DNA of 18,971 nucleotides from Planctomycetota bacterium. GTDB taxonomy: Bacteria > Planctomycetota > J058. The notes below the pieces were generated by a model. The model saw only the letters and a program-made list of their open reading frames with translations. It was not told where the DNA came from and made no database searches. Below are positions 1-18,971 of the stretch, piece after piece. Location: NCBI GenBank assembly GCA_023954375.1, contig JAMLIC010000006.1, positions 1-18,971 of the forward strand. The letters are read 5' to 3'. A program made the position numbers and the translations under genes. Each line of letters starts with the position of its first letter. Position 1 is the first letter of the stretch.

Positions 1-120
1 CCCCCCCCCCCGGGGGGGGGGGGGGCGGGGGGGGGGGGGGGCCCCGGCCCCCCCCCCCGCCCCCCCCCCGCCTCGCCTCGGCCTCGGCGGCCTCGCCTCG
101 CTCGTCGCTCCGCTCCGCCC
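1..120. repeat. Low-complexity C/G homopolymer block (C11, G19, G14, C11...) followed by CCTCG-type short repeats. Probably a contig-end sequencing or assembly artefact.
   Basis: Directly visible: runs of 10-19 identical C or G residues and no coding structure. The window begins inside it. Confidence 0.6.
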
Positions 121-177
121 GTGGCCATGCAGGCGGGCCGCGACATCACCGAGGTGAGGCGTCGAGCAACCGCGGGG

Positions 178-194
178 GTGACGGCGCCCGTCAC
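178..194 (-). terminator. Perfect 7-bp inverted repeat GTGACGG-cgc-CCGTCAC about 85 nt downstream of the PilT-PilZ stop. Candidate GC-rich hairpin terminator with no U-tract.
   Basis: Inverted repeat read directly from the sequence. No T/U run follows on either strand, so intrinsic-terminator function is uncertain. Confidence 0.25.
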
Positions 195-278
195 ACTGTG
201 GGACGAGCCCGGAGATGCCCGAGAGGGGACGAGCGCGAGACGACGGGACTCATGTGCATCGGCGGCCGCAGCCGTCGC

Positions 279-1742
279 CTATGAGTGAAGCCGGAGGTAG
301 CGGTCGAGCGCCTGCGCCGCCGGCGGCGTGAGCCGCCCGAAGCGCACGCCGACCAGGTAGCGCCCGTCGTCCTCGCGGGAGACCGAGCGCACGTCGCCGT
401 CCGCCTCGACGACCACGTCCTCGAGCGCGAGCGACAGGCGCAGGCGGGCGCCGATGAGGAGCGGGTGATCGAGCTCCAGGCGCGCGCCGTCGTGCGAGAG
501 GTCGCGCGTCCGGCTGGCCGTCAGCTCGCGCGGCACCCCGAGCAGGTCGTCGTACTCGCCCACGTTGACCAGCGTCAGCGCCTGCACCCGCGGCTCGTGG
601 CGCCGCTCCTGCGGCGCCGCCGGCGGCCGGCGTCGCCGGGCCCCGCCCTGCCACCACGGGCGCTCGCGCGCCTCCGGCCGCGCGGCCCGCGCGAAGCGCT
701 GCGGGTCGCGCGCGTGGCGCGCGGCCTCCTCGGCCGTCACCTGCCCCGTCCGCACGAGCGCCTCGAGCGAGTCGTCGAGCAGGATCATCCCCTCGCCGGC
801 GACCTGGATCGCGCTGCGCAGCTCGTGCGTGCGCCCCCCCCGGATCAGCGCCGAGATCGCGGGCGACTGGAGCATCACCTCGCAGGCCGGGAGGCGGCCC
901 TTCCCGGTGCGCTCGTCGACGAGCACCTGGCTGACGACGGCGCGCAGCGACTGGGAGAGCATGGCCCTGGCCAGCGGGAGCTCGTCGCTCTCGAACAGGT
1001 CGAGGATCCGCTCCACGGTCTGGCCGGCGTCGTTGGCGTGCAGCGTGGCCAGCACCAGGACCCCCGTCTCGGCGGCCGTCAGGGCCGCGCGCACGGTCTC
1101 CAGGTCGCGCAGCTCGCCCACGAGGAGCACGTCCGGGTCCTCGTGCAGGCTGTCGATCACCCCCTGGTGGAAGGTCGGCACGTCCACGCCCACGGCGCGC
1201 TGCTGCACCAGCGAGCGCCCCGAGGCGTGCTGGTACTCGAGGGGGTCCTCGATGGTGATGATGTTCAACGCCTCGGCCTCGGCGAGCCGGCGCGTCAGCG
1301 CCGCGAGGGTGGAGGTCTTGCCGGTCCCCGTGGGGCCGGTCACGAGCACGAGCCCGGACCGGAGCTCGGCGAGTCGCACGACCACCGGGGGGAGGCGCAG
1401 CTCCTCGAGCGACGGCACGGCCCCGGCGAGCGGCCGGAGCGCGAGGGCGAGGCCCGTCCGCTGCCGGTAGGCGTGCCCGCGCCACCGCGCGCCGCCGCCG
1501 TCGACCACCGAGAACTCGAGGTAGCCCCGGGCGTCGAGGCGCGCCTGGCCGCCCTCCGGCAGGAGCCCGGCCAGGAGGCCCCGCAGGGCGCCGTCGTCGA
1601 GGGCGGCGCTCCCCTCGACCTCGATCAGCTCGCCCTGCAGGCGCATGCGCGGCCGCAGCCCTGCCTGGAGGTGCAGGTCCGAGCAGTGGAGCTCGAACGT
1701 GCGCTTCATCAGCCCGCCGAGCGTCGCTCCGAAGCTGGTCAT
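279..1742 (-). CDS. PilT-family (type IV pilus retraction-type, GspE/VirB11 superfamily) hexameric ATPase fused to a C-terminal PilZ domain.
   Basis: PilT core motifs: SDLHL, Walker A GPTGTGKTST, Asp box ITIEDPLEY, and His box TLHAND. The C-terminal ~110 aa carry canonical PilZ motifs RRHEPR (RRxxxR), then DLSHDG (DxSxxG) 30 aa later. The ATG lies 1 nt after the upstream gene's TGA. Confidence 0.85.
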   Translation of the reverse strand: MTSFGATLGGLMKRTFELHCSDLHLQAGLRPRMRLQGELIEVEGSAALDDGALRGLLAGLLPEGGQARLDARGYLEFSVVDGGGARWRGHAYRQRTGLALALRPLAGAVPSLEELRLPPVVVRLAELRSGLVLVTGPTGTGKTSTLAALTRRLAEAEALNIITIEDPLEYQHASGRSLVQQRAVGVDVPTFHQGVIDSLHEDPDVLLVGELRDLETVRAALTAAETGVLVLATLHANDAGQTVERILDLFESDELPLARAMLSQSLRAVVSQVLVDERTGKGRLPACEVMLQSPAISALIRGGRTHELRSAIQVAGEGMILLDDSLEALVRTGQVTAEEAARHARDPQRFARAARPEARERPWWQGGARRRRPPAAPQERRHEPRVQALTLVNVGEYDDLLGVPRELTASRTRDLSHDGARLELDHPLLIGARLRLSLALEDVVVEADGDVRSVSREDDGRYLVGVRFGRLTPPAAQALDRYLRLHS

Positions 1743-1743
1743 C

Positions 1744-3090
1744 TCACGCCTCCTCGCCGGCGCGCAGGACGCGCGCCGGGTCGAGCGCCAGGGGCAGCGC
1801 GTCGGCCGCGGCGACCTTGCCGGACCGCACCAGCCCCACGAGGGCGTCGTCGAGCATGCTCATCCCCTCCTTGCCCGAGGCCTGCATGACCCCCTGCAGC
1901 TGGTGCACCAGGTCCTCGCGGATCAGGCGGGCCACCGCGGGGGTCGCGACGAGCACCTCGGTCGCGAGGTGCTGACGGAGCCCGTCCGTGCCCGGGAGCA
2001 GGTGCTGGCTGACGACCAGCCGGAGCACGCTCGCGAGCATGCCGCGGACCATCGTCCGCTTGCGCCCCGTGTAGGCGTCGAGCACGCGCAGCACGCTCCG
2101 GTGCGCGCCGCTCGTGTGCAGGGTGCCGAGCACCAGGTGGCCCGTCTCGGCCGCAGTCAGGGCGGCCATGATCTGGTCGGGGGTGGCAAGCTCGGCCAGC
2201 ACGATCACGTCCGGGTTCTCCCGGACGACCGAGCGCAGCCCCTCGGTGTAGCTCGCGACGTGCGAGCCCACCTCGCGCTGGCTGATCAGGCAGGTGCGGC
2301 TCGGCAGCACGTACTCGATCGGCCGCTCGAGCGTGACCACGTGGCTGCGCCGGGTCTGGTTGAAGAGCTCGATGACGGCGGCCAGCGTCGTGGTCTTGCC
2401 GCTCCCGCGCGGGCCCGTGACCAGCACCAGCCCACGCTTCAGCCGGGGCACCTGCGTGAGGATCGGGGGGAGGGCCAGCCAGTCGTGCTCGGGGACCGCC
2501 TCGGGGATCCGCCGCACGGCCGCGCTCGGCCCGCGCGACTGCATGAACAGGCCCAGCCTGAAGCGCCCGATCCCCTCGCGCGGCAGGTGCACGAGCAGGC
2601 TCCGCTCGCGCTCGAGCTCGGCCCGCTGCTCCGCCGTGAGCGCCGACTCGATCAGCGCGCGGCAGCGCTCCGGCTCGAGCGGCCGCGGCGCGAGGCTGAC
2701 CAGCCGGCCGGCGATCCGGGCGTTGATGCGCGCCCCGGGCGTCAGGTGCAGGTCGGTGGCGCCGACCTCGACCTGGATGCGGAGGAGCTCGTCGAGGTCC
2801 GCCGCCTCGGCGCGCTCCGCCACCGCCTTGCGCGAGAAGTGCCCGCCCTCACCGCCGCCCTCGACCCGCCGCTGGCAGGCGAGCAGGCGCTCGAGGGAGG
2901 GCCGGGAGACGAGCCCCTCGTCGACCAGCAGGTCGCCCAGGAAGCGGGGCGGGTCCTGCGTGGCCTGGAGCTCGAGGCACCGCGCGACCTCCGCCTCCTC
3001 CACCAGGCCGTAGCGGACCGCGAGCTCACCCAGCTGCTTGCACCCGGGCGCCTCCCGGGGCTCCCGACCGACTTCCACTGCGCTCCCCAT
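1744..3090 (-). CDS. PilT-like ATPase with an N-terminal MshEN / T2SSE_N-type domain (putative c-di-GMP receptor).
   Basis: Walker A GPRGSGKTT, Asp box VTLERPIEY, His box TLHTSGA. The N-terminus has two tandem 24-residue motifs, QLGELAVRYGLVEEAEVARCLELQ and RFLGDLLVDEGLVSRPSLERLLACQ. These match the MshEN c-di-GMP-binding consensus RLGxxLLxxGLIxxxxLxxxLxxQ. Start chosen at the ATG at 3090, which has GGAGGTG 7 nt upstream. The ORF track extends to 3168 but that stretch lacks an SD. Confidence 0.8.
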   Translation of the reverse strand: MGSAVEVGREPREAPGCKQLGELAVRYGLVEEAEVARCLELQATQDPPRFLGDLLVDEGLVSRPSLERLLACQRRVEGGGEGGHFSRKAVAERAEAADLDELLRIQVEVGATDLHLTPGARINARIAGRLVSLAPRPLEPERCRALIESALTAEQRAELERERSLLVHLPREGIGRFRLGLFMQSRGPSAAVRRIPEAVPEHDWLALPPILTQVPRLKRGLVLVTGPRGSGKTTTLAAVIELFNQTRRSHVVTLERPIEYVLPSRTCLISQREVGSHVASYTEGLRSVVRENPDVIVLAELATPDQIMAALTAAETGHLVLGTLHTSGAHRSVLRVLDAYTGRKRTMVRGMLASVLRLVVSQHLLPGTDGLRQHLATEVLVATPAVARLIREDLVHQLQGVMQASGKEGMSMLDDALVGLVRSGKVAAADALPLALDPARVLRAGEEA

Positions 3091-3181
3091 CCTGCCACCT
3101 CCGCGATGTCGGCGGGGCTTCGCAAGCCGCGCGCCGCGCGCAACTGCAAGGCAGGCGAGGGGTGTCATCGGCGCGCGACGC

Positions 3182-3207
3182 CGCCGGTCGCGCGGCCGTG
3201 ACCGGCG
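3182..3207 (-). other. Stem-loop (8-bp stem CGCCGGTC / GACCGGCG, 10-nt loop) immediately 3' of the WD40 stop codon, inside the 117-nt spacer before the PilT-MshEN gene.
   Basis: Inverted repeat read directly. Its position between co-directional genes suggests an intra-operon attenuator, stability element or terminator. Confidence 0.3.
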
Positions 3208-4716
3208 TCAGTCAGGCAGCACGTGGCGGCGGACCGCGCCGGTCCGCGCGCCGGCGAGCAGCGACCGGCCGTCGGGCGCGAAGGCGACGGCGAGCTGCAC
3301 GGCGGGAGACGGCCACTCCGCCACGCGCTCGCCGTCGAGGCGCGTCAGGCGCACACCATCGGTGTGGGCCGTCGCGACGAGGGCTCCGTCGGGCGAGAGG
3401 GCCATCGCGTAGATGCCGCGCTCGTGCACGCGCAGCGGGGCGCCGACCTCCTGGCCCGTGGCGACGTCGAAGCGGCGGACGTGGCCGTCATCGCACGCCG
3501 TGAGCAGGGAGGTGCCGTCGGGCGTGAAGGCCAGGTCCTGCACGGCGTCCAGGTGGGGCGCGGTCCAGCGCGCCGCCCCGCTGGCGAGGTCATGGAGCAC
3601 CGCCCGCTGGTCGGAGCCCCCGGTGGCGCAGAGGGCCCCGTCGGGCGAGAGGGCCAGGGCGCCGACCTTCCGCTCGTGGCCCGCGACCTCGAGCAGGGGC
3701 CGGTCGCCGCCTGGCGTCCCGGGCCACACGCGCAGGGCGCCGTCGTACCCGGCGCTGACCAGGCGCCCGTCGGGGAGGGCGCGCAAGGCGGTGACGCCGC
3801 CCTCGTGCGCCGGCCAGCTCCCGCGCGCCTCGCCCGTGGCGACGTCCCAGGCGGCGATCACGCCCGCGAGGTCGCCCGCCCACAGGCGCGCGCCGTCGGG
3901 GCTGAAGGCCAGGGCCAACGGGTCGATCGGCGCCCGGCGCATGACGTGGAGGGGGTCGCCCGAGGCCGCGTCGCGCAGCGTCAGGTGGCCCGTGCGCGCG
4001 GCGAACGCCACGCGCGCCCCGTCCGGCGCGAAGACGATCGCGCGCACGATGCACGGCTCGGCGGAGAAGCGCCGCCCGGTCCGCGCCCGCCGGGCGGCCA
4101 CCGGGTCACCCAGGTCGAGGACCCACGGCGCCAGGTCGTCACGGATGACGACGCGCACCTGCGCGGGGGCGTGGGCGAGCAGCCCGCGCTCGAGGCCGTC
4201 CCGCAGGAGCGTCGCCGCGTTCTCCGGCTCGCGAGCGACGGCGCACGCCATCAGGACCTGCTCGCCCGCCGCGACGGCCCCCCAGCCCTCTGCCATCGTC
4301 GCCGCCGCGGCCTCGCGCAGCGCCTCGAGCGCCACCCGGCGGCTCGCGGCCGGCGCGAGCAACGCGCCGTCGAGCGCGTCGAGCAGGCGGACGACGAGGT
4401 CGTCGGGGCCGTCGAAGCGCTCCCAGCGCACGGGCGCGGCGTGGGCGGCCGCGGCCGCCGTGCGCAGGCAGGCCTCGGGGCCGAGCGCGACCGCGGCGCG
4501 AATCACGGCCTCGACCCAGGCGCTCGGCTGGGCCTGCGCGGGCTCGACGCCGGCCACGGCGCAGGCCGCCCGGTGCCCCAGGGCCACGGCGAGGTCGAGC
4601 GCGAGGGGGTCGAGGAGGCCCAGGCGGGCCCGCTCGCCCAGGAGGCGCGCCGCGGCGGCGTCGCCCGGCTGCTCGCGCCAGGCGCGCTCGGCGGCGCGCA
4701 GCCGCTCGTCGCTCAC
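3208..4716 (-). CDS. WD40 beta-propeller protein: an N-terminal ~230-aa Ala/Leu-rich helical domain plus ~7 WD-like repeats.
   Basis: The C-terminal half has repeated [AS]-x-D-G-x-x-[LV] ... W-D blades (FSPDGARLWAGDLAGVIAAWDV, LSPDGALCATGGSD, FTPDGTSLLTACDDGHVRRFDV, LSPDGALVATAHTDG, FAPDGRSLLAGA). GTG start at 4716 is preceded by GGAGGG. It overlaps the upstream gene's stop as GTGA. The longer ORF-track start (5124) runs antisense through the upstream gene and is rejected. Confidence 0.8.
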   Translation of the reverse strand: MSDERLRAAERAWREQPGDAAAARLLGERARLGLLDPLALDLAVALGHRAACAVAGVEPAQAQPSAWVEAVIRAAVALGPEACLRTAAAAAHAAPVRWERFDGPDDLVVRLLDALDGALLAPAASRRVALEALREAAAATMAEGWGAVAAGEQVLMACAVAREPENAATLLRDGLERGLLAHAPAQVRVVIRDDLAPWVLDLGDPVAARRARTGRRFSAEPCIVRAIVFAPDGARVAFAARTGHLTLRDAASGDPLHVMRRAPIDPLALAFSPDGARLWAGDLAGVIAAWDVATGEARGSWPAHEGGVTALRALPDGRLVSAGYDGALRVWPGTPGGDRPLLEVAGHERKVGALALSPDGALCATGGSDQRAVLHDLASGAARWTAPHLDAVQDLAFTPDGTSLLTACDDGHVRRFDVATGQEVGAPLRVHERGIYAMALSPDGALVATAHTDGVRLTRLDGERVAEWPSPAVQLAVAFAPDGRSLLAGARTGAVRRHVLPD

Positions 4717-6002
4717 GGGCCCTCCGGATAGAGCAGCGCCCGCGCCCGGGCGCGGGCGAACGCCGCCAGGGCCGGGTCGGCCCGCCAGCGGGCGACGATC
4801 GCCGCCGGGTCGTCGCCGCGCTCGAGCGCCTCCAGCACCCACCGCGCGCCGATCAGGCCGCGCAGGCGGTCGACCCGGTAGCGGTCCGGGTGCAGGCGCA
4901 GGAGCGCGTCGAGCAGGTGCAGACCTGCCTCGACGGGCCGCAGGGCGCGCCGGTCCGTCACGACGACGCGCACGCCCCGGCAGACCTGCTCGGCGAACGG
5001 GTAGGCGACGTTCTCGCGCCCGGTCACGTCGCGGCGCGACGGGACGAACGTCGTGGCCGAGAACCATAGCCCCGGGAGGGCGCGGGCCTCGAGGGCCGCG
5101 GCCAGCCCCTCGCCGTCGACCCACGGCGCGCCGACGTACTCGAACGGCCGGTCGGTCCCGCGGCCGACGGAGAGGTCGTGGTTGGCCTCCGTGAGCGCCA
5201 CCATGGGGTAGAGGAGCGCCTCGTCGACCGAGCGCAGGTTGGGCGAGGGGTTCACCCAGGGCAGGCCGGTCTCGTCCTGGAGCAGGCCGCGCCGCCAGCC
5301 CTCGCAGGCGATCACCTGCAGGTCGGCGGCGAGGTCGTCGTTCATGAGCCGCGCCACCTCACCCACCGTCATCCCGTGGGTCACGGGCATGGGCCAGAAC
5401 GAGGTGAAGCGGCCGACGAGGTCCGGGTCCTGCAGCGGGCCGTCGAACCCGTGGCCGCCGGTCGGGTTCGGACGGTCGAGGACGACCACGCGCAGGCCGC
5501 GGCGGGCGGCCTCCTCGAGGAGCAGGCCGAGCGTCGAGATGTAGGTGTAGAAGCGAGCGCCGACGTCCTGGATGTCGAACACCAGCGTGTCGAGCCCCTC
5601 GAGCATCGCGTCGGTCGGGCGGCGCGTCTGCCCGTAGAGGCTGTGGACCGGCAGGCCGGTGCGCGCATCGACGCCCGAGGCCACCGGCGCGTCCTGGTCC
5701 CCGCGCAGCCCGTGCTCGGGCGAGAGGAGAGCCGCGAGCGTGACCCCCGGCGCGGCGACCAGGAGGTCGATCGCGTGCCGGCCCTGGCGGTCGATCGCCG
5801 TGTGGTTGACGACGAGGCCGACGCGCCGGCCGCGCAGGGGGGCGCAGCCGTCGCGGACGAGGACGTCGAGGCCGGTGAGCACGACCGTCGAGACGGGCGC
5901 GACCGGCCCCGCGTCCGGACCCGACGTGGGCGGGGCCGGCGCGGGCGGCGGGGCGGCGCAGCCGAGCGCGAGCAGGAGCAGGGCGAGCGGGGCGCGGCTC
6001 AC
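4713..6002 (-). CDS. namZ: DUF1343-family lipoprotein (NamZ-like exo-beta-N-acetylmuramidase family).
   Basis: Signal peptide with lipobox LALGC. Motifs I associate with DUF1343/YbbC/NamZ: GRRVGLVVNHTAIDRQGRH, LLSPEHGLRG, LDRPNPTGG. GTG start with GGAGGA upstream. Family assignment is from memory of motifs, not a search. Confidence 0.65.
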   Translation of the reverse strand: MSRAPLALLLLALGCAAPPPAPAPPTSGPDAGPVAPVSTVVLTGLDVLVRDGCAPLRGRRVGLVVNHTAIDRQGRHAIDLLVAAPGVTLAALLSPEHGLRGDQDAPVASGVDARTGLPVHSLYGQTRRPTDAMLEGLDTLVFDIQDVGARFYTYISTLGLLLEEAARRGLRVVVLDRPNPTGGHGFDGPLQDPDLVGRFTSFWPMPVTHGMTVGEVARLMNDDLAADLQVIACEGWRRGLLQDETGLPWVNPSPNLRSVDEALLYPMVALTEANHDLSVGRGTDRPFEYVGAPWVDGEGLAAALEARALPGLWFSATTFVPSRRDVTGRENVAYPFAEQVCRGVRVVVTDRRALRPVEAGLHLLDALLRLHPDRYRVDRLRGLIGARWVLEALERGDDPAAIVARWRADPALAAFARARARALLYPEGP

Positions 6003-6072
6003 GGGGGCCAGTCCTCCAGCGCCTCGCGCGCCCGCTCGCCCCCGGCCAGGGCGGCGGCCCCGAGGGCGCAGG

Positions 6073-6864
6073 TCACAGGCGCCCGGCGCGCCGCAGCTCC
6101 TCGTCCTGCGCCCGCGTCCGCCGGTAGTAGGCGGTCATCGTCAGGAGGCTCGCCGCCGGCGGGTCGAGGTAGGCGGTCACGCGCCGGTGGAGCTGCAGCG
6201 CGCTGGCGGGGAAGAAGCTCGACACCGGCCCCTCGACCATGCCGCGCACGGCCTGCGCCTTCTTGGGGCCGATCGCCTGGAGCAGGACCTCGCGCGCGTC
6301 GAGGATCGTGCCGATGCCCATGGTCACGGCGAGCACCGGCGGCCGCTCGCCCGGGCCATAGAAGCGGGCGTTGTCCTCGAGCGTGCGCTCGGTCAGCGTC
6401 TTGACGCGCGTGCGCGACGCCAGCGACGACGTGGGCTCGTTGAAGCCGATGTGCCCGTTGCGCCCGATCCCCAGCAGCTGCACGTCGATCCCGCCGCACG
6501 CCGCGATCCGCGCCTCGTACTCCTCGCAGCGGCGCAGGAGGTCCTTGCCGTCGGCGGGCGGGAAGTGGACGTTCTCCGGCGGCAGGTCGAGCCCCTCGAA
6601 CAGGTGCTCGCGCATGAACGTGCGGTAGCTCTGCGGGTGCTCCGCCGGCAGGTCCAGGTACTCGTCGAGGTTGAACGTGCGCACGCGCGCGAAGCTCACC
6701 TCGCCGCGCGCGTGCGCCTCGCGCAGGCGGCGGTAGACGCCGACCGGGGTCGAGCCCGTGGCCAGCCCGAGCACGAGGTCGGGCTTGGCCTTCAGGCGCG
6801 CGACGATGACGTCGGCGACCTGCGCGGCCGCGTCCTCGGCGTCGCGTGCGAGCACGATCTCCAC
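6073..6864 (-). CDS. nagB: Glucosamine-6-phosphate deaminase.
   Basis: Classic NagB signatures GLATGSTP and GIGRNGHIGFNEP. Length 263 aa. GTG start with GAGGAGGA 6 nt upstream. Confidence 0.9.
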   Translation of the reverse strand: MEIVLARDAEDAAAQVADVIVARLKAKPDLVLGLATGSTPVGVYRRLREAHARGEVSFARVRTFNLDEYLDLPAEHPQSYRTFMREHLFEGLDLPPENVHFPPADGKDLLRRCEEYEARIAACGGIDVQLLGIGRNGHIGFNEPTSSLASRTRVKTLTERTLEDNARFYGPGERPPVLAVTMGIGTILDAREVLLQAIGPKKAQAVRGMVEGPVSSFFPASALQLHRRVTAYLDPPAASLLTMTAYYRRTRAQDEELRRAGRL

Positions 6865-6892
6865 GCCGTCCTCCTCGTCAGCCGGTCTCTCG

Positions 6893-8194
6893 TCAGCCCG
6901 TCGGGGGCGCCGGCGGCGCGCTCGGCGGCGCCGGGGGTGCGCTCGGCGGCGCCCCCGGCGGCGCGGCGGGCGGCGCGCCCGGGGCCACCGCGGCGGCCTT
7001 CTGCTTCTCGAGCTGCGTGTAGACCAGGTAGCCGCCGCCGCCGAGCATCGCCAGGAACACGAAGCAGCAGCCGAGGCCGAGGACGAGCTTGATGAGCGTC
7101 CCCAGGAAGCCCCCGCCCTGCTGCGACACGTTGCCCAGGCGGATCAGGTAGGTGTCGAGGTGGCTCACCGAGCCGAACGGCGGGCCCTTGTTCACGCCGC
7201 GCGCCTCGGGGGTGTAGACCTTGAGCATGTGGACGCGGGCGACCTTCTTGTCCTCCGGATCGGGGTAGGCGGCCTCGACCCTGAAGCTGTAGCACATCGG
7301 CTCGCCGATCAGGTTGTGCTTGTAGACCTCCCAGTCCTTGTCGATGCGGATCGCCAGCGGGTCGCGGTCGTCGTGCTTGCGCTTGAGGTGCTCGCGCAGG
7401 GCCGCGACGATCGCCGCGGGGTCGCCGTCGAACGGCTCCACGTGCGGCAGCCACTCGGTCGCGTCGATGAGCTTCTCGGTCTTCGCCTCCCAGTCCGCGA
7501 TCGCCGCGTCGAGGTCCTTCATCAGCTGGGTCAGCTCGGGGTCGCCCGGCAGGTAGCCCAGGACCTTCTCCAGGATCGGGCGGCGCTTCGACAGGTTCGT
7601 CACCTGACCGCGCGCCTCCATGACGTACTTCCGCTCCGCGTACTGTCGCTCGTGGCTGGTCAGCGCGTCCCGCACGTGCTTGACCGCGAAGTCCTCCGCG
7701 AGCTGCCGCCACTTCGGCGGCGCCTCGAGCAGCCGCTTGGCCTTCTTGTAGAACGTCTGCGGCCACGCCGTGCGCGTGTCCAGCCACTTCTTCCGGTCCG
7801 GGCTCAGGCGGCGCTCGAAGCCGGGCGCGCGCGGGTCGACCGGCTTGCCGTAGGCCTCGAAGACCTTGGCCTCGAGCGCGTCCGCGTCGGTCCCGAACTT
7901 GGCCTCGATCGCGGCCAGCGCCTGCTTCAGCGGCTCGAGCTCCTGCTCCGCCGCCGCGAGGCCCGTGAACTTCTCGTCGATGTACTTGCCGTCGTAGGCG
8001 TAGGGGTCGGCGTACGACCGACTGTGCTCCACGTCGGCCGCGTACTCGCCGAGCGACTTCTCGGCCGTCCGCATCAGCTCGGCGGCCTGCGCCCACTGGC
8101 GCTTCTCGGCGTCCGAGGGGTCCTCGGCCGCCGCGACGGGCAGGGCCAGGGCGGCGAGGACGAGCCCGCACCTCCGGATGATCGTGACGTTCAT
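6893..8194 (-). CDS. Hypothetical type-I membrane protein: signal peptide, ~370-aa Lys/Glu/Asp-rich ectodomain, one TM helix, Pro-rich C-terminal tail.
   Basis: N-terminal MNVTIIRRCGLVLAALALPVAAAE signal. C-terminal hydrophobic segment FLGTLIKLVLGLGCCFVFLAML followed by an (APP)n tail. Unusually Lys-rich, with AAG/AAA/TTC codons. Local GC is visibly lower than the neighbouring genes. I recognise no family. Start coordinate is +/-1 because of the local text/ORF-track discrepancy. Confidence 0.6.
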   Translation of the reverse strand: MNVTIIRRCGLVLAALALPVAAAEDPSDAEKRQWAQAAELMRTAEKSLGEYAADVEHSRSYADPYAYDGKYIDEKFTGLAAAEQELEPLKQALAAIEAKFGTDADALEAKVFEAYGKPVDPRAPGFERRLSPDRKKWLDTRTAWPQTFYKKAKRLLEAPPKWRQLAEDFAVKHVRDALTSHERQYAERKYVMEARGQVTNLSKRRPILEKVLGYLPGDPELTQLMKDLDAAIADWEAKTEKLIDATEWLPHVEPFDGDPAAIVAALREHLKRKHDDRDPLAIRIDKDWEVYKHNLIGEPMCYSFRVEAAYPDPEDKKVARVHMLKVYTPEARGVNKGPPFGSVSHLDTYLIRLGNVSQQGGGFLGTLIKLVLGLGCCFVFLAMLGGGGYLVYTQLEKQKAAAVAPGAPPAAPPGAPPSAPPAPPSAPPAPPTG

Positions 8195-8256
8195 GGTCCC
8201 CCCTTCCCCCCTTCGGGGCGGAGAGGATACGGGATGCAGGCCGCTCCGGCCAAGGC

Positions 8257-9576
8257 CTACAGGCCGTCGAGCGCCCCGCGGCTGTCCCCGAAGCTGGTCG
8301 CGCGCGCGCCCGCCCGCTGGAGGATCGACACGTAGAGGTTGCACAGCGGCGTCTCGGGCGCGAGGCGCAGGTGCCTCCCGCCGTGCACCGAGCCGCCGCC
8401 GCGCCCGCAGAGGAGGACCGGCAGGTCGTGGTGGTCGTGGCGGTCGCCGTCGCGGATCGCGCTGCCGAAGACGACCAGCGTGTTGTCGAGGAGCGTGCCC
8501 CGGCCCTCATCGACGGCCGCGAGCTGCTCGAGGAGGTAGGCGAGCTGCTCCACCTGGAAGCGGTTGATCCGCTGCAGCTTCGCCTGGCGCTCCGCATCGC
8601 CGCCGTGGTGCGACAGGTCGTGGTGCCCCTCCGGCACGCCGAGGAAGCGGTAGCTCCGGTTGCTGCCCGCGTTGGCCGTCATGAACGTCGCCACGCGCGT
8701 CGTGTCGGTCTGGAAGGCCAGGCGCACGATGTCGTACATGCGGCGGATGTGCTCGCCGTAGTCGCCCGCCGCGCCGGTCGGCGGGGCGACCGGCGGCCCC
8801 TCGCTCCGGCGGCGCTGCGGCTTGCCCAGGCGCTTCTCGAGCGCGCGCACCGCCTCCATGTACTCCTCGAGCTTGCGCCGGTCCGCCGCGCCCAGGCGCG
8901 CCCGGACGCGCTTGGCGTCATCGAGGACGAGGTCGAGGACGGAGGCGCGCTGGCGGTCGCGCCGCGCGCGCTGGTCGGGCGTGAGCCCCTCGCCGTCGAG
9001 GAACAGCCGCTCGAACACGGCCCGCGGGTCGATCTCCTTGGCCACCGGCGTCGTCGGCCCGCTCCAGGCGATGTTCGACGAGTAGGCGCAGCTGTAGCCG
9101 GAGTCGCAGTTGCCCCCCTGCGCGCTCGGGTCGCAGCCGAGCTCGAGCGAGGGGAGCGGCGTCGCCTGGCCGACCGCCTGGGCGAGGACCTGGTCGACGG
9201 AGACGCCGTTGTGGATGTCGGCGCCGTCGGTCTTGCGCGGGTGCGCGCCGGTGAGGAACGCCGCGCCGGCCCGCGCGTGGTCGCCCGGCCCGTCGCCGTG
9301 CGCGCGCGCCCCGTCGAGGGTCAGCCCGGAGAGGACCGTGAGGTGCCGCCGGAAGGGCGCGAGCGGCTCGAGCGTGGGCGGCAGGGCGAAGTCGGCGCCG
9401 ATGCGCTCGGGCGTCCAGGCCGACATGTGCACGCCGTTGGGGAGGAACACGAACAGCGCCCGCACGGGCGGCCGGTCGGCGGCGCGGGCCGCGGGCAGGA
9501 GCGACTCGAGCAGCGGCAGGCCGAGCGTGGCCCCCGCCGCCCCGCGCAGGAACGTCCGCCGCGTGCACCTGCTCAC
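8257..9576 (-). CDS. DUF1552-family protein (Tat-signal periplasmic protein, the usual partner of PSCyt/PSD-type DUF1592 proteins).
   Basis: Twin-arginine signal SRCTRRTFLRGAAGATLGLPLLE is typical of DUF1552 N-termini. GTG start overlaps the upstream stop as GTGA at 9573-9576. Family assignment from recognised N-terminal architecture and gene pairing. Confidence 0.65.
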   Translation of the reverse strand: MSRCTRRTFLRGAAGATLGLPLLESLLPAARAADRPPVRALFVFLPNGVHMSAWTPERIGADFALPPTLEPLAPFRRHLTVLSGLTLDGARAHGDGPGDHARAGAAFLTGAHPRKTDGADIHNGVSVDQVLAQAVGQATPLPSLELGCDPSAQGGNCDSGYSCAYSSNIAWSGPTTPVAKEIDPRAVFERLFLDGEGLTPDQRARRDRQRASVLDLVLDDAKRVRARLGAADRRKLEEYMEAVRALEKRLGKPQRRRSEGPPVAPPTGAAGDYGEHIRRMYDIVRLAFQTDTTRVATFMTANAGSNRSYRFLGVPEGHHDLSHHGGDAERQAKLQRINRFQVEQLAYLLEQLAAVDEGRGTLLDNTLVVFGSAIRDGDRHDHHDLPVLLCGRGGGSVHGGRHLRLAPETPLCNLYVSILQRAGARATSFGDSRGALDGL

Positions 9577-11918
9577 CGGGCCCCCTTCGCCGCGCGCCGC
9601 TTCTGGAACGCGTCGAGGCGCGTCACGCCCACGACGAGGTCCGCCAGGCCCGGGTCCGGCCCGAGCGCCTCGAGCAGCGCGTCGAGCGCGCCCTCGTCGG
9701 CGGCCACGGGCCCGCGGCCGAGCCCGAAGACCATGAGCTTCTTCGCCAGGGCGCGCGCGAGGTCGCGCGAGCGGCCGCGCAGGTAGCCGCGGAGCCCGTC
9801 GACGCCCATGAAGGTCAGCCCGCCGGGGAGGACGCCCGCGTCGTCGATCGGCAGCCCCTCGTCCTGCTCGCGCCACGCGCCCACCGCGTCGAAGCGCTCG
9901 AGCCCGAAGCCGAGCGGGTCGAGCCGCGCGTGGCAGCCGGCGCAGGCGGGGTCGGCCCGGTGCCGCTCGAGGCGCGCGCGCAGCGTCTTGCCGGTGGCGG
10001 GCCCGTCCTCCTTCAGGCTGTCCATCCCGGGCAAGGGCGGCGGGGGCGGGTCGTCGAGCAGCACCTCGAGCACCCAGCGCCCGCGCTTCACGGGCGACGT
10101 GCGCGTCGGGTTCGAGGTGGCCGTGAGCACGCTCGCGTGGCCGAGGAGCCCCCGGCGGACGGGCGGCGCGTCGACGCGCACGAAGTCGGGCCCGCGCACG
10201 CCCCGGATGCCGTAGTGCCGGGCCAGGCGCTCGTTGACGAACGTGTACGGCGCGTCGAGGAGCTCGCTCACCGGGCGGTTGCCGCGCAGGACCGCCTCGA
10301 ACAGGCGCGCGCTCTCCTCCTTCATCGCCGCCCGCAGCGGCTCGTCGAAGCCGGGGAAGCTCGCCGGGTCCGGCGCGGCCGTGTCGAGGCGCCGGAGCTG
10401 GAGCCACTGGGTGGCGAACTGCTGCACGAAGCGGCCCGCCTTCGGGTCGGCCAGGAGCCGGCGCGCCTGGGCCTCGAGCTGGTCGCGGAGCCCCCCCGCC
10501 TGGGCCGCGCGCAGGAGCTCCTCGTCGGGCAGGCTCACGTGCAGGTAGTAGGAGAGGCGCGTGGCGAGCTCGTGGTCGGCCAGCGGCTGCGCGCCGGGGT
10601 GCGGCGGCTCGCCCGGCCGCGGGCGCGCGGCGTCGAGCTCGAAGCGGAAGAGGAAGTGCGGCGAGCAGAGGACCGCCGTCAGCGCGAGCTGCATGGCCCG
10701 CTCGAAGCTCTCGCCGTCGGCCATCGCCTGGTCGACGTGCCTGGCGTAGCGCTCGAGCTCGTCCGACTTCGCCGGCCGGCGGAAGGCCCGGGTGACGAGC
10801 GGGCCCAGGACCTCCCGGGCGACGGCGCGCCGCTGCACGGGGCGCGCGTTGTCGGCCGGCCGCTTCGTCAGGTAGGTGCGGTGCGCCCAGGGCAGCGGCG
10901 GCGCCTCGACCGGCCCCTCGAGCTCGACCCAGGCGACCGCGAGGTTACGGTCGCGCTGCGAAGGGTCGGCGGCGCCCGGGTCGTAGAAGTCGTTGACGAA
11001 GGCCGCCGCGAGGTCGTGGTCGCCGGCGCGCAGGCGGGTCCGCGCCTCGTAGACGCCCGGGTCGTCGACGGTCGCGCGCACGTCGAAGGTCTCGAGCGCG
11101 CGGCCGTCCACCCGGAGCGCCATCCGCGCCGGGTCGGGGCCCGCCTGCATGCCGTAGGCGCGCGCCCGGACGACGTACTCGCCCTCGTACGGCGCGCGCA
11201 CGCGGACCACGTAGGCGCCGTTCGACCAGAGCGTGCCGAAGCCGTCGCGGAAGTTGCCGTCGGAGCCCTCGCGCCGGGCCGACTCGACCGACACCCGCTC
11301 GCGCACCGGCTTGAAGTCGAGGAACGCGGCCCGGGCCACCGCCTCGCCGGCCGCGAGGTACTTCTCCAGCAGGAGCGGCGGGATCGACAGGACGTCGCCG
11401 ATCGTGTCGAAGCCGTAGCCGACGTCGTCGTCGGGGAAGGTCCGGGCCGGGGCCAGCTCGACGCGCAGCATGTCCTGGACGGTGAAGTCGTACTCGGCCC
11501 GGTTGAGCCGCCGCAGCGTCACACGCCCGGGGTCGAACGGCCCGGCCGGGGCGGCGGCGCCGCCGAGGGCGCCCCGCACCCAGGCGATCACCGCCTTGAC
11601 CTCCTCGGCCGACGGGCGCGGGCGGTCCTCGGGCGGCATGTCGCCAGCGTGCAGGCGCTCGAGGACGCCCGTCCAGGCCTTCCGCTCGCGGAGGACGGCC
11701 GCGCGGTCGGCGAAGCCGTCGAGCGCCAGGTCCCCCTCGCGCTCGCCGCGCCCGTGGCACTCGAAGCAGTGGCGCCGGAGGAAGGGGAGCACGACGCGGG
11801 CGAAGCCCGCCTCGTCACCGGCGGCGGGGTCGGCCTCGGCCGCCGCCGGGCGGGGCCACAGGGGCAGGGCCGCGGCGAGCGCGGCCAGGGGCACGAGGAG
11901 CAGGGCGCGGCGCGGCAT
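9573..11918 (-). CDS. Secreted multi-domain DUF1592/DUF1595/DUF1587/DUF1588-type (Planctomycete PSCyt/PSD-like) protein with an N-terminal c-type haem-binding motif.
   Basis: Signal peptide MPRRALLLVPLAALAAALPLWPRPAAA, then CFECHG (CxxCH) ~40 aa later. Large ~780-aa body. Paired with and translationally coupled to the DUF1552 gene downstream, the canonical arrangement for this family. Confidence 0.6.
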   Translation of the reverse strand: MPRRALLLVPLAALAAALPLWPRPAAAEADPAAGDEAGFARVVLPFLRRHCFECHGRGEREGDLALDGFADRAAVLRERKAWTGVLERLHAGDMPPEDRPRPSAEEVKAVIAWVRGALGGAAAPAGPFDPGRVTLRRLNRAEYDFTVQDMLRVELAPARTFPDDDVGYGFDTIGDVLSIPPLLLEKYLAAGEAVARAAFLDFKPVRERVSVESARREGSDGNFRDGFGTLWSNGAYVVRVRAPYEGEYVVRARAYGMQAGPDPARMALRVDGRALETFDVRATVDDPGVYEARTRLRAGDHDLAAAFVNDFYDPGAADPSQRDRNLAVAWVELEGPVEAPPLPWAHRTYLTKRPADNARPVQRRAVAREVLGPLVTRAFRRPAKSDELERYARHVDQAMADGESFERAMQLALTAVLCSPHFLFRFELDAARPRPGEPPHPGAQPLADHELATRLSYYLHVSLPDEELLRAAQAGGLRDQLEAQARRLLADPKAGRFVQQFATQWLQLRRLDTAAPDPASFPGFDEPLRAAMKEESARLFEAVLRGNRPVSELLDAPYTFVNERLARHYGIRGVRGPDFVRVDAPPVRRGLLGHASVLTATSNPTRTSPVKRGRWVLEVLLDDPPPPPLPGMDSLKEDGPATGKTLRARLERHRADPACAGCHARLDPLGFGLERFDAVGAWREQDEGLPIDDAGVLPGGLTFMGVDGLRGYLRGRSRDLARALAKKLMVFGLGRGPVAADEGALDALLEALGPDPGLADLVVGVTRLDAFQKRRAAKGAR

Positions 11919-11982
11919 TCGACGGGTGATTCTACGCCGGGGCCCGGCGCGGCTCGACCCGGTAGGCGCCGACGTCGCGCCG

Positions 11983-12966
11983 CTACTCCCGCCCGGGCCC
12001 GAGCAGGTCGACGGCGAGCGTGCCGACGCCGTGCCCGTCCGACCAGTTGCCCAGGTGACCCCAGAGGAAGACGCCGCGCCGGAGCTCGTCGGAGAGGGGG
12101 GCCAGGGCCGCCTCGGACCAGGCGCGCGCAAGAGAGAGGAGCGGGCGCCCGTCCTGGTGGACCTTGAGGCCCCAGCCGGCGACGTCGACCCGCAGGTCGA
12201 GCACGAGGGGCTCGGCCGGCCGCGGGCGGAGCTCGAAGCGCTCGAGCACCTCCACGCCGGGCGTGCGCGGCTGCCCGGGGGGCGGGTCGTGCACCAGGTC
12301 GGCCCCGGGGGGCTTGTCGCGGTTGACGACGCGCACGAGCCCCAGCACCCGCCCGTCGCGCCGCACCTGGAGCGTGACCCACCACGCGCCCGGCTCGAGC
12401 TGCCGCGCGGCCTCGATCGGATGGCCCGCGGCCCGCACGCCGAGCTCGTAGAAGAAGCCGGCGGCCTCGCGGAACCCGTGGCCCCGCTCCCAGTCGGCCA
12501 GGCCGGAGGCGTCGCGGGCGACCTCGGCGGCGCAGGTCCAGCGCACGGCGAGCGGCAGGGCGCGGCGCTCCCGGTCGAAGAGGCCGGCGCGCTCCCAGTC
12601 GCTCGTCGGGCGGGGGCGCGAGGTGTAGACGCCGTCCTCGCCCCGGGCGAGGCCGTCCGCCGGGGGCTGCACGTCGAAGGTCAGGCGCGTGGCCCCCCGC
12701 GACCGCCCGGCGGGCTCGGACGCCGCCGGCTCGGGCGTCACCGGCTCGGGCGCGGGCCCGGGCGCTGCCGGCCCGGGCGCCGCCGGCCCGGGCGTCGCCG
12801 GCCCGGCCTCGTCGGCCGACGCCGGCCTGGCGTCGCGTGGCGCCTCCGGCGTCGCCGCGGCCGCTGCCGGCCCGGCCTGGGGCGGCGCCGGCGACGTCCC
12901 CGCCGACGGGCCGCGGCCGACGCGCAGCGCGGCGACGGCCGCGACCGCCGCCACCACGAGCACGGC
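11983..12966 (-). CDS. TM helix + Pro/Ala-rich linker + ~250-aa extracytoplasmic domain. Almost certainly the C-terminal part of the Ser/Thr kinase gene, read in the -1 frame.
   Basis: Frame with near-100% GC3 encodes AVLVVAAVAAVAAL (a TM helix), then PGPAAPGPAAPGPAPEPVTPEP, then a structured domain ending at a TAG at 11983-11985. Upstream of ~12970 this frame becomes Arg/Gly-rich nonsense. The true 5' boundary of this segment is approximate. Confidence 0.55.
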   Translation of the reverse strand, partial: AVLVVAAVAAVAALRVGRGPSAGTSPAPPQAGPAAAAATPEAPRDARPASADEAGPATPGPAAPGPAAPGPAPEPVTPEPAASEPAGRSRGATRLTFDVQPPADGLARGEDGVYTSRPRPTSDWERAGLFDRERRALPLAVRWTCAAEVARDASGLADWERGHGFREAAGFFYELGVRAAGHPIEAARQLEPGAWWVTLQVRRDGRVLGLVRVVNRDKPPGADLVHDPPPGQPRTPGVEVLERFELRPRPAEPLVLDLRVDVAGWGLKVHQDGRPLLSLARAWSEAALAPLSDELRRGVFLWGHLGNWSDGHGVGTLAVDLLGPGRE

Positions 12967-14075
12967 CGCGGCCGCGCCCGCCCGGGGGCGGCGCCCGCCT
13001 GACCGGAGGTGCGCGCGACCGGCGCGGGCGCGCGCAGCGCCTCCTCGATCGCCGCGAGGAGGGCGCCCGGACCGGGATGGCGGCGGGCCGCCTCGGGCTC
13101 CATCGCGCGCTGCACGAGCGCCACGGCGCGCTCGGAGAGCCCGGGGCGACGCCGCGCGAGGTCGCCCGGGGCGCCCCGGCTGCGCAGCGGCGGCGCGCCG
13201 GTGAGGAGCGCGTAGAGCGTGGCGCCGAGGCCGTAGACGTCGACGCGCGCGTCGAGGTCGGGGGCCCCCGCGATCTGCTCCGGCGCCATGAAGGCCAGCG
13301 TGCCCACGGCCACGCCGGTGAGGGTCAGCCGGTCCGCGCCGGTCTGGCTGCGCGCCAGCCCCAGGTCGCCCAGCTTGGCCCGCCCCCCGGGGGTGAGGAA
13401 CAGGTTCGTCGGCTTCACGTCGCGATGGACGAGGCCGGCCGCCTCCAGCGCCGCGAGGCCCAGCGCGGCGTCGCGCGCCAGCTCCAGCGCGCGGCGCTCG
13501 GGCAACGCGCCGCCCGCCCGGGCCAGGAGGCCCTGCGCGTCCCCGCCGGTCATCAGCTCCATGGCGATGTAGGGCTGCCCGTCGAGCTCCCCCGCGGAGT
13601 AGCAGGTGATCACGTGCGGGTCGTTCACGGCGGCCAGCACGCGCGCCTCGCGCAGGAAGCGCCGCCGCGCCCCGGGGTCGGCCGCGAGGGCGGGGGCGAG
13701 GAGCTTCACGGCCACGTCGCGCGCGAGCGCGCGCTCGCGGGCCCGGAAGACGCGCCCCATCCCCCCCTGCCCGAGCGGGGCCAGGAGGTCGAACCCGCCG
13801 AGCGTCCGCGGGAGGCCCTCCGGCGCGGGCCCCGCGCCGGTCGTCGCCGGCGGCGCGGTCGCGCCGGCGCGGACCTCGCGCAGCAGGTCGGCCAGCAGCG
13901 CCTCCGGCACGTCCAGCCAGAACGCGAAGAGGCCGGCGCTCAGGTCCCCCTCGTCCGGGCGGCCGGCGAGCGCCTCGCGCGCGTGGGCCACCGCCTCGGG
14001 CGGCGCGAGGTCGCGGGCCTGGAGGCGGCGCAGCGCCTCCTCCCACTCGGCCCGGGCGCCGACGAGGGCGCTCAC
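12738..14075 (-). CDS. Hanks-type Ser/Thr protein kinase: ~95-aa N-terminal extension plus catalytic domain. The frame decays into an Arg-rich tail after a C5 homopolymer, consistent with a frameshift or sequencing indel.
   Basis: Gly loop LGQGGMGRVF, VAVK (catalytic Lys), HRDVKPTNLFL, DLGLAR, GTLAFMAPE. GTG start at 14075 overlaps the ECF sigma stop as GTGA. After ...AIEEALRAPAPVARTSGQAGAAP the frame gives RPRPCSWWRRSRPS... with reduced GC3. Confidence 0.75.
   Translation of the reverse strand: MSALVGARAEWEEALRRLQARDLAPPEAVAHAREALAGRPDEGDLSAGLFAFWLDVPEALLADLLREVRAGATAPPATTGAGPAPEGLPRTLGGFDLLAPLGQGGMGRVFRARERALARDVAVKLLAPALAADPGARRRFLREARVLAAVNDPHVITCYSAGELDGQPYIAMELMTGGDAQGLLARAGGALPERRALELARDAALGLAALEAAGLVHRDVKPTNLFLTPGGRAKLGDLGLARSQTGADRLTLTGVAVGTLAFMAPEQIAGAPDLDARVDVYGLGATLYALLTGAPPLRSRGAPGDLARRRPGLSERAVALVQRAMEPEAARRHPGPGALLAAIEEALRAPAPVARTSGQAGAAPGRARPRPCSWWRRSRPSPRCASAAARRRGRRRRRPRPGRQRPRRRRRRHATPGRRRPTRPGRRRPGRRRPGRQRPGPRPSR
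12755..12810 (-). repeat. About 3.5 tandem copies of a 15-bp unit (CCGGGCGNNGCCGGC) encoding (PGPAA)n in the kinase's extracytoplasmic linker.
   Basis: Direct tandem repeat visible on the plus strand (gctgccggcccgggc / gccgccggcccgggc / gtcgccggcccggcc). In-frame, so copy number could vary without breaking the ORF. Confidence 0.5.
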
Positions 14076-14821: not shown

Positions 14822-14900
14822 ACGGAAGAGTTTACAGCTCGGGCCGCGAACCACGAAAGATCTCGCCGCCCACCGGATACCCAGGGCGAAGGAGGTCCCC
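14822..14900. promoter_or_regulatory. 79-bp divergent intergenic spacer between the ECF sigma gene (minus) and a lipoprotein gene (plus). Contains TTTACA (14831-14836) and the SD AAGGAGG (14887-14893) for the lipoprotein gene.
   Basis: Noticeably lower GC than the flanks. Near-consensus -35-like hexamer and a strong SD 7 nt before the ATG at 14901, read directly. No convincing -10 found. Confidence 0.4.
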
Positions 14901-15914: not shown

Positions 15915-15996
15915 CCGTGAGCGCGGCTCCGGCGCGCTCCGTCCGCGCTCCTGGCGCGCCCGCCCCGCGGTAGACTCATCCCGCCGGAGTATTACG
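15915..15996 (+). promoter_or_regulatory. Upstream region of the nik/cbi operon with an imperfect palindrome GTAGACTC-N9-GAGTATTAC (15970-15995) overlapping the SD GGAG. Candidate metalloregulator operator or promoter.
   Basis: Read directly. It is the only AT-richer patch in this spacer. 82 bp is too short for a B12 riboswitch. Confidence 0.3.
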
Positions 15997-16710: not shown

Positions 16711-16714
16711 CCCC

Positions 16715-18566: not shown

Positions 18567-18971
18567 GTGGACCCGGCCGTCCTCGAGGCGCGCGACCTGG
18601 GCTACGCCTACCCGGGGCGGGAGGGGGTGCTCGCGGGCGTGTCGCTGCGCATCGGCCCCGGCGAGCGGGTGGGGCTCGTCGGCCCCAACGGGGCGGGCAA
18701 GTCGACGCTCCTCCTCCTGCTCGCGGGCGCGCTCGCGCCGACCGCCGGCGCGCTGCTCCTCGACGGGCGCCCCGTCGACGCCGCCCGGCTCGACGAGCTG
18801 CGGCGCCGCGTCGGCCTCGTCTTCCAGCTCGCCGACGACATGCTCTTCACCACCTCGGTCGAGGACGACGTGGCCTTCGGGCCGCGCCACCTGGGGCTCG
18901 CGCCGGACGAGGTCGAGCGGCGCGTCGGCGAGGCCCTGGCGGCCGTCGGCGCGCTCCCCCTGCGCGGGCGC
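18567..18971 (+). CDS. nikO: CbiO/NikO ABC ATPase (A component) of the ECF transporter, 5' fragment truncated by the window end.
   Basis: GTG 1 nt after the nikQ TGA. Walker [11 protein letters not shown]-loop region [25 protein letters not shown] is typical of CbiO/EcfA. Confidence 0.85.

Follow-up and report, generated by a model that had tools for sequence, protein, structure and literature searches.

A PilT-Family ATPase With a C-Terminal PilZ Domain in Planctomycetota

Introduction

Type IV pili are controlled by cyclic di-GMP (c-di-GMP) mainly through the MshEN domain of the extension ATPases (MshE, PilB, and PilF) or through separate adaptors. A locus from a Planctomycetota bacterium (GTDB lineage J058) raises the question of whether a retraction-type ATPase could also respond to this second messenger, and in which direction. 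The locus lies on contig JAMLIC010000006.1 of assembly GCA_023954375.1, of which positions 1 to 18,971 of the forward strand (18,971 nucleotides, hereafter the window) were analyzed. One gene of the minus strand (gene A) had been predicted, from the DNA letters alone, to encode a PilT-family ATPase fused to a C-terminal PilZ domain. The gene upstream of it (gene B) was described as a paralog carrying MshEN, which would place two distinct c-di-GMP inputs on one putative motor.

Identification of the PilT-PilZ Fusion

The PilZ domain of gene A was proposed in the original prediction because of two motifs, RRHEPR and DLSHDG. Both lie at the positions given there, and the C-terminal string that was quoted with them is also present in the open reading frame (ORF), which ends in ...YLVGVRFGRLTPPAAQALDRYLRLHS. 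The Pfam profile for PilZ (PF07238; gathering cutoff 22.5 bits) was found to match residues 379-483 over model positions 1-100 of 102, scoring 47.2 bits (E = 3e-12) with the whole protein and 51.8 bits (E = 1.1e-13) with the last 110 codons (nucleotides (nt) 282-611) alone, well above the cutoff in both cases. The first motif is an RxxxR with an extra Arg in front, and the second has the form [D/N]hSxxG by which this PilZ motif is defined (bioRxiv 10.1101/814665). Gene A was aligned with 12 orthologous clusters (alignment A1, 13 sequences, 47-90% identity). R380, R381, E383, and R385 of the first motif are invariant in 13 of 13 sequences, as are D414, S416, and G419 of the second, where the h position is Leu or Ile and L415 is nearly invariant; the motifs are thus conserved among the orthologs. 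D414 follows R385 by 29 residues, and a conserved Phe (F468) marks the end of the final barrel strand. Mean column identity in A1 is 64% for the PilZ segment versus 66% for the whole protein.

Pairwise and profile sequence searches of the PDB with the PilZ part returned nothing significant (PP4397, E = 0.19), and a comparison of folds was therefore needed. Non-significant matches in sequence-only PDB searches are usual for the divergent PilZ family. The full-length AlphaFold2 (AF2) model (mean predicted local distance difference test score (pLDDT) 78) contains a PilT fold, a disordered stretch at residues 354-384 with pLDDT below 50, six strands, and a terminal helix. The C-terminal 118 residues modeled alone gave the same topology (pLDDT 79; barrel 87-93). 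When the predicted PilZ model was compared with the PDB by Foldseek, PilZ domains took each of the top 39 places; a number of these structures, many in fact, contain c-di-GMP, and the matches included Alg44, MotI/DgrA (query TM-score 0.73), BcsA, MrkH, VCA0042, YcgR, PP4397, and PlzA. The linker stretch RERPWW(Q/L)GG is kept in closer orthologs only. No PilZN/YcgR profile match was found in gene A, where the ATPase core and the disordered linker precede PilZ. Membership of TIGR02266, a PilZ-like paralogous domain of Myxococcus, was rejected (30.9 bits, cutoff 68.7). Judged by its motifs and its predicted fold, the C-terminus of gene A is a canonical PilZ domain with both c-di-GMP-contacting motifs intact, and would be expected to be ligand-competent, binding c-di-GMP.

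The window has a GC content of 75-82% and numerous long overlapping ORFs on both strands, from which genuine ORFs were told apart by codon-position GC. Values of 0.81, 0.49, and 0.99 at codon positions 1, 2, and 3 (GC3 being the last) are typical for such GC-rich DNA and indicate that gene A, which terminates in a TAG codon (nt 279-281), is genuine coding sequence. NCBIfam TIGR01420, the PilT/PilU ATPase of type IVa pili, matches residues 10-348 (model 4-342 of 343) with 347.1 bits against a curated cutoff of 319.1, so that both parts of the predicted fusion exceed their family cutoffs. The core aligns with Pseudomonas aeruginosa PilT (3JVU; E = 3e-72, 247 bits) better than with PilU (9N32; 206 bits), and gene A was accordingly rejected as a PilU ortholog. 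Like canonical PilT (3JVU/3JVV; Geobacter metallireducens 6OJX), gene A has a core of about 350 residues with four catalytic boxes; canonical PilT ends after this core, whereas gene A continues with a 30-residue linker and a 105-residue PilZ domain. Invariant residues in A1 are G136, G139, G141, K142, and T145 of Walker A, E165, D166, P167, and E169 of the Asp box, D204-E210 and R212 of Walker B, and T233 and H235 of the His box. The AIRNLIRE motif of PilT has an equivalent (AISALIRGG) in which A295, I300, and R301 are conserved; its final Glu is not, the position being occupied by G, A, M, V, D, E, or T across orthologs. The ATPase is apparently catalytically competent on these sequence grounds, and would presumably form a hexameric motor.

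The fusion is neither confined to one assembly nor common. Among the best 120 matches, PF00437 and PF07238 were found combined in proteins of 468-487 residues in 12 clusters at 90% identity, which originate from NCBI, ENA, JGI, and Logan assemblies. A HMMER scan of all 1.84 billion 50%-identity representatives gave 36,252 proteins at E <= 1e-10, of which only six span the profile end to end including PilZ. A pattern for the PilZ part was also searched in one genome per species (185,579 species), and two loci were found, both in Planctomycetota metagenome-assembled genomes; since a single peptide pattern was used, this count is a lower bound. The earlier remark that such a fusion is uncommon is therefore borne out. 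All named members come from Planctomycetota metagenome-assembled genomes, and their sole annotation is "PilT/PilU family type 4a pilus ATPase." A frameshift or mis-assembly that merged pilT with a downstream stand-alone pilZ might be suspected, because a closely related family of stand-alone PilZ proteins of about 115 residues exists and because the window stops 200 nt downstream of the gene in homopolymer C/G runs resembling an assembly artifact. Against this, the uninterrupted architecture recurs in independent assemblies across 47-90% identity, GC3 holds at 0.99 in a single frame across the junction, and in three contexts examined the stand-alone PilZ relatives are not beside pilT genes. 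Given the recurrence in 12 clusters an artifact can be excluded, the residual chance being vanishingly small.

Both domains are textbook families, and the fusion proteins are already in public databases without comment. The literature searched, which also covered PilZ in Planctomycetes and PilT interaction with c-di-GMP, yielded neither an account of a PilT-PilZ protein nor an example of a retraction-type ATPase that senses c-di-GMP itself; PilT is mentioned neither in a PilZ review preprint (bioRxiv 10.1101/814665) nor in the MshEN paper (PMC5013675). The fusion is thus rare and undescribed within the literature searched.

Table 1. Positions of the features of the window; amino acid (aa) numbers refer to the respective protein.
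Feature	Position (nt)	Strand	Basis
Gene A, 487-aa PilT-family ATPase with C-terminal PilZ	279..1742	-	ORF, GC3, TIGR01420, Pfam T2SSE and PilZ
PilT/PilU ATPase core of gene A, aa 10-348	699..1715	-	TIGR01420; 3JVU match; invariant catalytic residues
Walker A, GPTGTGKTS	1311-1337	-	Key residues invariant in ortholog alignment
Asp box, ITIEDPLEY	1233-1259	-	Key residues invariant in ortholog alignment
Walker B, DPDVLLVGELRD	1104-1139	-	Catalytic Glu invariant in ortholog alignment
His box, LATLHAND	1029-1052	-	Key residues invariant in ortholog alignment
AIRNLIRE-like motif, AISALIRGG	834-860	-	Sequence
Flexible Arg/Pro/Ala-rich linker, aa 354-379	606..683	-	Low pLDDT; variable length and sequence in A1
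PilZ motif 1, RRHEPR, aa 380-385	588..605	-	Invariant residues in A1
PilZ motif 2, DLSHDG, aa 414-419	486..503	-	Invariant residues in A1
Predicted PilZ barrel, aa 391-468 (nt 339-572), and C-terminal alpha-helix, aa 473-486 (nt 285-326)	285..572	-	AF2, Foldseek
Gene B, second PilT-family ATPase, 474-aa ORF	1744..3168	-	TIGR01420, 3JVU match
Probable true start of gene B, M27	3088-3090	-
PilT core of gene B	1777-2796	-	TIGR01420
MshEN_N-like module of gene B, QLGELAVRYGLVEEAEVARCLELQ (aa 45-68) and FLGDLLVDEGLVSRPSLERLLACQ (aa 76-99), 7-residue spacer	2872..3036	-	Profile A4 versus PDB
WD40 beta-propeller gene	3208-5124	-
NamZ (exo-beta-N-acetylmuramidase) ORF	4713-6002	-
DUF1552 (HXXSHH) gene, then DUF1592-type protein	8260-12131	-
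Ser/Thr protein kinase gene beside sigma-70-region-2 protein	12741-15265	-
DUF4198-CbiM-(CarboxypepD_reg-like)-CbiQ cluster	15997-18566	+

Gene B and Its MshEN-Like Module

Gene B encodes a second PilT-family ATPase, which scores 339 bits with TIGR01420, above the cutoff, and matches P. aeruginosa PilT 3JVU with E = 7.7e-75. The two proteins are 38% identical. Only 1 nt separates the stop codon of gene B and the first codon of gene A, and the pair is therefore probably co-transcribed. The motifs of the B family differ from those of gene A. Its AIRNLIRE equivalent (AVARLIRED) retains A411, I416, R417, and E418 as invariant residues. The Asp of the Asp box is gone in five of five B-family sequences, where R, Q, or E is found instead (ERPIE, EQPIT, EETIE, EQPVE). 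Moreover, the orthologs of two further loci (L003, 6694-8004; L005, 6703-8004) have Asp in place of the Walker B Glu, and Pro or Arg in place of the His of the His box. This pattern suggests a reduced or altered ATPase activity in the upstream paralog.

The MshEN attributed to gene B was in part upheld. The B orthologs open directly with two 24-residue repeats of the form xLGxxhhxxGhhxxxxLxxxLxxQ, and a profile of five such N-termini (A4) matched G. metallireducens PilB (6OLJ, E = 4e-10), Thermus PilF (6F8L, E = 9e-10), and residues 8-61 of V. cholerae MshE (5HTL, E = 2.8e-6). The last region is essentially the 53-residue c-di-GMP-binding module of MshE, Arg9 to Gln61 (Wang et al., PMC5013675). 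Homology to the module of MshE, PilB, and PilF thus stands, and the ligand-contacting Leu, Gly, and Gln positions are invariant in the B family. A formal family assignment does not: Pfam MshEN (PF05157) gave no match, and NF053729 scored 36.1 bits for gene B and 32.2 bits for its L002 ortholog against a cutoff of 38. The published relaxed motif is [RKPN]hGxxhhxx[GAS]hhxxxxhxxxhxx[QNKRYWST] in two copies with a 5-residue spacer (PMC5013675). The motifs of gene B fit this pattern except at position 1 (Q and F), with a spacer of 7 versus 5 residues, and across the B orthologs a full fit was found in motif 1 of L003 and L005 only. The Arg of position 1 is not conserved, the five sequences having Q/L/R/T/R in motif 1 and F/S/H/F/Y in motif 2. 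The binding energy of MshEN is dominated by hydrophobic residues, and earlier Arg9 mutants changed affinity less than fivefold (Wang et al., PMC5013675), so that c-di-GMP binding by the gene B module may still occur. By profile comparison, therefore, the N-terminus of gene B is homologous to the MshE/PilB c-di-GMP module while scoring below the curated family cutoffs.

Conservation of the Gene Pair

The pair was examined in six loci, namely the window and five others (L001-L005). The DNA of L001 (JAHBXY010000047, isolate ACE_PLA31) shares 88-91% identity with window positions 256-7475, and the window therefore comes from a close relative of the L001 source; L002-L005 are 49-59% identical. Gene B precedes gene A in every locus, with stop and start abutting or overlapping. 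In three of the six, a PilB/GspE-type ATPase with MshEN and T2SSE domains directly adjoins the pair, downstream in L002 and upstream in L003 and L005, and in two of these three it also contains GAF; the window, L001, and L004 lack such a neighbor. The conserved unit is thus the two ATPases, sometimes extended to a trio by the PilB-type ATPase. The proposal of two c-di-GMP inputs on one motor is a reasonable hypothesis, the evidence for A and B as a single motor being their strictly conserved adjacency.

Similarity to Known Systems

A c-di-GMP receptor domain and a pilus motor ATPase are also found in one polypeptide in MshE, PilB, and PilF (PMC5013675; 5HTL), whose MshEN-type module recurs in the adjacent PilB proteins and, as a homologous MshEN_N-like N-terminus, in gene B. 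In these systems, however, the N-terminal MshEN is attached to an extension ATPase, whereas gene A has a C-terminal PilZ and an ATPase of the retraction (PilT) type. In YcgR and MotI (DgrA), as would be the case here, a canonical PilZ domain conveys the c-di-GMP level to a motility motor, and MotI (5VX6) and YcgR (5Y6F) rank among the best fold matches of the predicted domain, with query TM-scores of 0.71-0.73. These are separate proteins with an extra PilZN domain and act on flagellar stator or rotor targets, whereas gene A has a single PilZ domain fused to a pilus-type ATPase. A precedent for PilZ fused to the enzyme or complex that it controls is provided by BcsA and Alg44, which are also among the top fold matches (Alg44 4RT0, BcsA 4P00); their outputs are polysaccharide synthases, unlike the AAA+-like secretion ATPase of gene A. 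Contact between a PilZ-family protein and a type IV pilus ATPase is also known from Xanthomonas, although it is made in trans, with PilB, in a PilZ-FimX-PilB complex (PMC8389850). Neither motif is present in this PilZ, and c-di-GMP is bound by FimX instead (bioRxiv 10.1101/814665), whereas the PilZ domain of gene A keeps both motifs and is fused.

The two-gene arrangement resembles that of PilT and PilU in Proteobacteria. Teipen et al. (bioRxiv 10.1101/2025.10.30.685630) propose that PilT bridges PilU to the platform protein PilC, the two forming stacked hexamers. In their account, PilU is set apart by the loss of AIRNLIRE and by an added C-terminal extension wrapped around the PilT N-terminal domain, and retraction can do without the ATPase activity of PilT as long as PilU is there. 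In the same way, B and A are adjacent PilT-family genes, of which B keeps A..IRE while A has a weakened motif and a C-terminal extension, and the intact boxes of A versus the variable boxes of B parallel the dispensable PilT activity. The likeness is limited, since the extension of gene A is predicted to be a folded c-di-GMP receptor domain instead of a short peptide, gene B bears an N-terminal MshEN_N-like bundle, and gene A is no PilU ortholog. The analogy is suggestive of B as an adaptor ring and A as a power ring.

A Proposed c-di-GMP Brake on Retraction

Taken together, gene A probably encodes a hexameric PilT-family motor whose ligand-competent PilZ domain is carried on a tether of about 30 residues, and which, with gene B, would form the retraction side of a type IVa pilus motor that is braked by c-di-GMP. 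In the proposed mechanism, c-di-GMP would be gripped on one side by the RRxxxR loop, where the linker ends, and on the other by the DLSxxG face of the barrel. In other PilZ proteins such as PP4397, an Arg in front of RxxxR goes with binding of an intercalated c-di-GMP dimer. Binding could order the linker and draw the barrel onto the ATPase C-terminal domain or the partner hexamer, where the docked barrel might alter ATPase cycling or engagement with the pilus base. High c-di-GMP would then lower retraction, and pili would stay extended and adhesive. The sign of this effect is put forward tentatively, at a little short of an even chance. A brake is favored because it matches the PilZ brakes on flagellar motors, and because c-di-GMP favors extension of the MSHA pilus in V. 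cholerae, where it controls both extension and retraction of this pilus via MshE (PMC7096442).

Several points weigh against this proposal. In the window and in L001 the pair adjoins no other pilus gene, and the six loci showed no gene for PilC, PilM-Q, or a pilin; other pilus machinery, if it exists, must therefore be encoded elsewhere, and a type IV pilus role in this particular genome is presumed. The one table entry found for a retraction ATPase, that of V. cholerae PilT, records no binding of c-di-GMP (PMC10333796), which leaves direct control of a retraction ATPase without experimental precedent. The ratio of nonsynonymous to synonymous substitution rates (dN/dS) against the 91%-identical relative in L001 is 0.56 for the PilZ part and 0.27 for the core; with about 25 changes and synonymous sites constrained by a GC3 of 99%, this domain-wise comparison is uninformative. 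Lastly, the sequence lends no support to either sign of regulation.

A rival reading has the opposite sign, in which c-di-GMP on PilZ would activate the motor or recruit it to the pilus base or partner hexamer, giving more retraction, dynamic pili, or surface pulling. PilZ proteins that act on motors (YcgR and MotI) are brakes or clutches, which counts against such activation. The adjacent PilB extension ATPases also carry MshEN, and one signal activating both directions would be futile unless affinities differ. On the other hand, no sequence feature fixes the direction, PilZ and MshEN receptors activate the fused enzymes in BcsA, Alg44, and MshE (fold matches; PMC5013675), and a domain tethered by the C-terminal region could dock upon ligand binding much as the PilU extension wraps PilT (bioRxiv 10.1101/2025.10.30.685630). 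Activation is accordingly judged possible, with a chance of roughly one in four or five. A far smaller chance, amounting to very unlikely, is given to PilZ as a ligand-independent adaptor that senses no c-di-GMP, like the Xanthomonas and Pseudomonas PilZ proteins that bind PilB and FimX. Loss of c-di-GMP binding has indeed occurred in some PilZ-family proteins that serve as adaptors of pilus ATPases (bioRxiv 10.1101/814665; PMC8389850), but the known adaptors are without the RxxxR loop and DxSxxG and have an incomplete barrel (bioRxiv 10.1101/814665). In gene A, the motifs are invariant across orthologs of 47-90% identity and the predicted barrel and helix are complete.

It is also conceivable that the pair powers another type IV filament-like or secretion machine, or a different process, still under c-di-GMP control and distinct from type IVa retraction. 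PilT paralogs with non-retraction or unknown roles are common in multi-copy genomes, which would favor this view, as would the unusual catalytic motifs of the gene B orthologs and the lack of pilin, PilC, PilM-Q, or other such pilus genes near the pair in the six loci. However, A and B both score above the TIGR01420 cutoff, the PDB entries closest to each are genuine PilT proteins, and the pair abuts the MshEN PilB/GspE-type ATPase in three of the six loci; such a machine is considered distinctly unlikely. Slightly less unlikely, though still doubtful, is a variant drawn from the PilT-PilU analogy, in which B and A would be the Planctomycetota analog of the stacked hexamers, with B as the machine-engaging adaptor ring, A as the power ring, and c-di-GMP deciding whether the rings couple. 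The PilZ domain of A and the MshEN_N module of B would then meet at the ring-ring interface as a ligand-operated clutch for pilus retraction force, both partners and the neighboring PilB bearing c-di-GMP sensor modules.

Should gene A sense c-di-GMP as proposed, this would be the first case of this second messenger being read directly by a retraction-type motor. PilT-PilZ would offer a compact, purifiable system for studying how a small ligand-binding domain gates a hexameric secretion ATPase. In Planctomycetota with PilT-PilZ, an MshEN-like PilT paralog, and MshEN-PilB, all three pilus motors may answer to a single signal. The family has very few members, all from uncultured organisms, and everything beyond domain identity is inference.

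Origin of the Fused Domain and Other PilT Architectures

A profile of the PilZ part retrieved 33 stand-alone PilZ clusters of 102-140 residues that are 31-55% identical to it, and none of the fusions. These relatives (P0273-P0303; L006 6001-6348, L007 1855-2202, L008 6001-6363) carry ERRHEPRV...GRTLDLSHDG..LELDH like the fused domain. The fusion arose, most simply, via capture of a member of this stand-alone family. No pilT gene was found near the stand-alone relatives in the three contexts examined, so that a PilZ-PilT partnership outside the fusion, which was also considered, received no evidence from synteny there. A gene for a P-type cation-transporting ATPase was seen near the stand-alone PilZ in two of the three.

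Different C-terminal additions were observed on other PilT-family ATPases, including ankyrin repeats (P0143, 672 residues), HEAT repeats (P0204, 502 residues), and a GGDEF diguanylate-cyclase domain (P0229, 509 residues), and several more have extensions of 150-320 residues without a Pfam match. Proteins with two complete PilT cores per polypeptide (about 710-770 residues, some up to 1024) are abundant among the matches (P0006, P0009, P0125-P0130, and others), and one of them, P0006 (818 residues), begins with an MshEN-like double motif. Rosetta-stone support for an A-B partnership was sought in the tandem PilT-PilT proteins of about 730 residues and was not obtained: the two halves do not correspond specifically to B and A, and both A and B are closer to the C-terminal one.

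Other Genes of the Window and Related Loci

Directly upstream of gene B lies the WD40 beta-propeller gene, which is kept in L001 and not in the distant loci. As predicted, this ORF shares about 400 nt with that of NamZ, and the true start of the WD40 gene is therefore probably downstream of the first GTG. No GGDEF or EAL gene was seen within the window; in the metagenomic locus L004, a gene for a putative diguanylate cyclase with GAF and GGDEF domains (9413-10591, minus strand) follows the PilT-PilZ gene at a distance of about 5.5 kb downstream. At the other end, the window begins, at positions 1-70, with long homopolymer runs of C and G (CCCCCCCCCCCGGGGGGGGGGGGGGCGGGG...). These lie some 200 nt beyond the stop codon of PilT-PilZ and look like a contig-end or assembly artifact; L001 continues there with normal genes (an FG-GAP protein, a macro-domain protein, a carbamoyltransferase, and a lactate permease).

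Farther from the pair, the DUF1552 gene is followed by one for a protein with DUF1592, DUF1588, DUF1587, DUF1595, and DUF1585 together with PSCyt, cytochrome-c, and CBM60 domains. Such a DUF1552 and DUF1592-type pair is typical of, and specific to, Planctomycetes, in agreement with the taxonomic assignment. A Ser/Thr protein kinase gene stands beside that of a sigma-70-region-2 protein, and the CbiM-CbiQ cluster on the plus strand resembles a cobalt/nickel uptake system.

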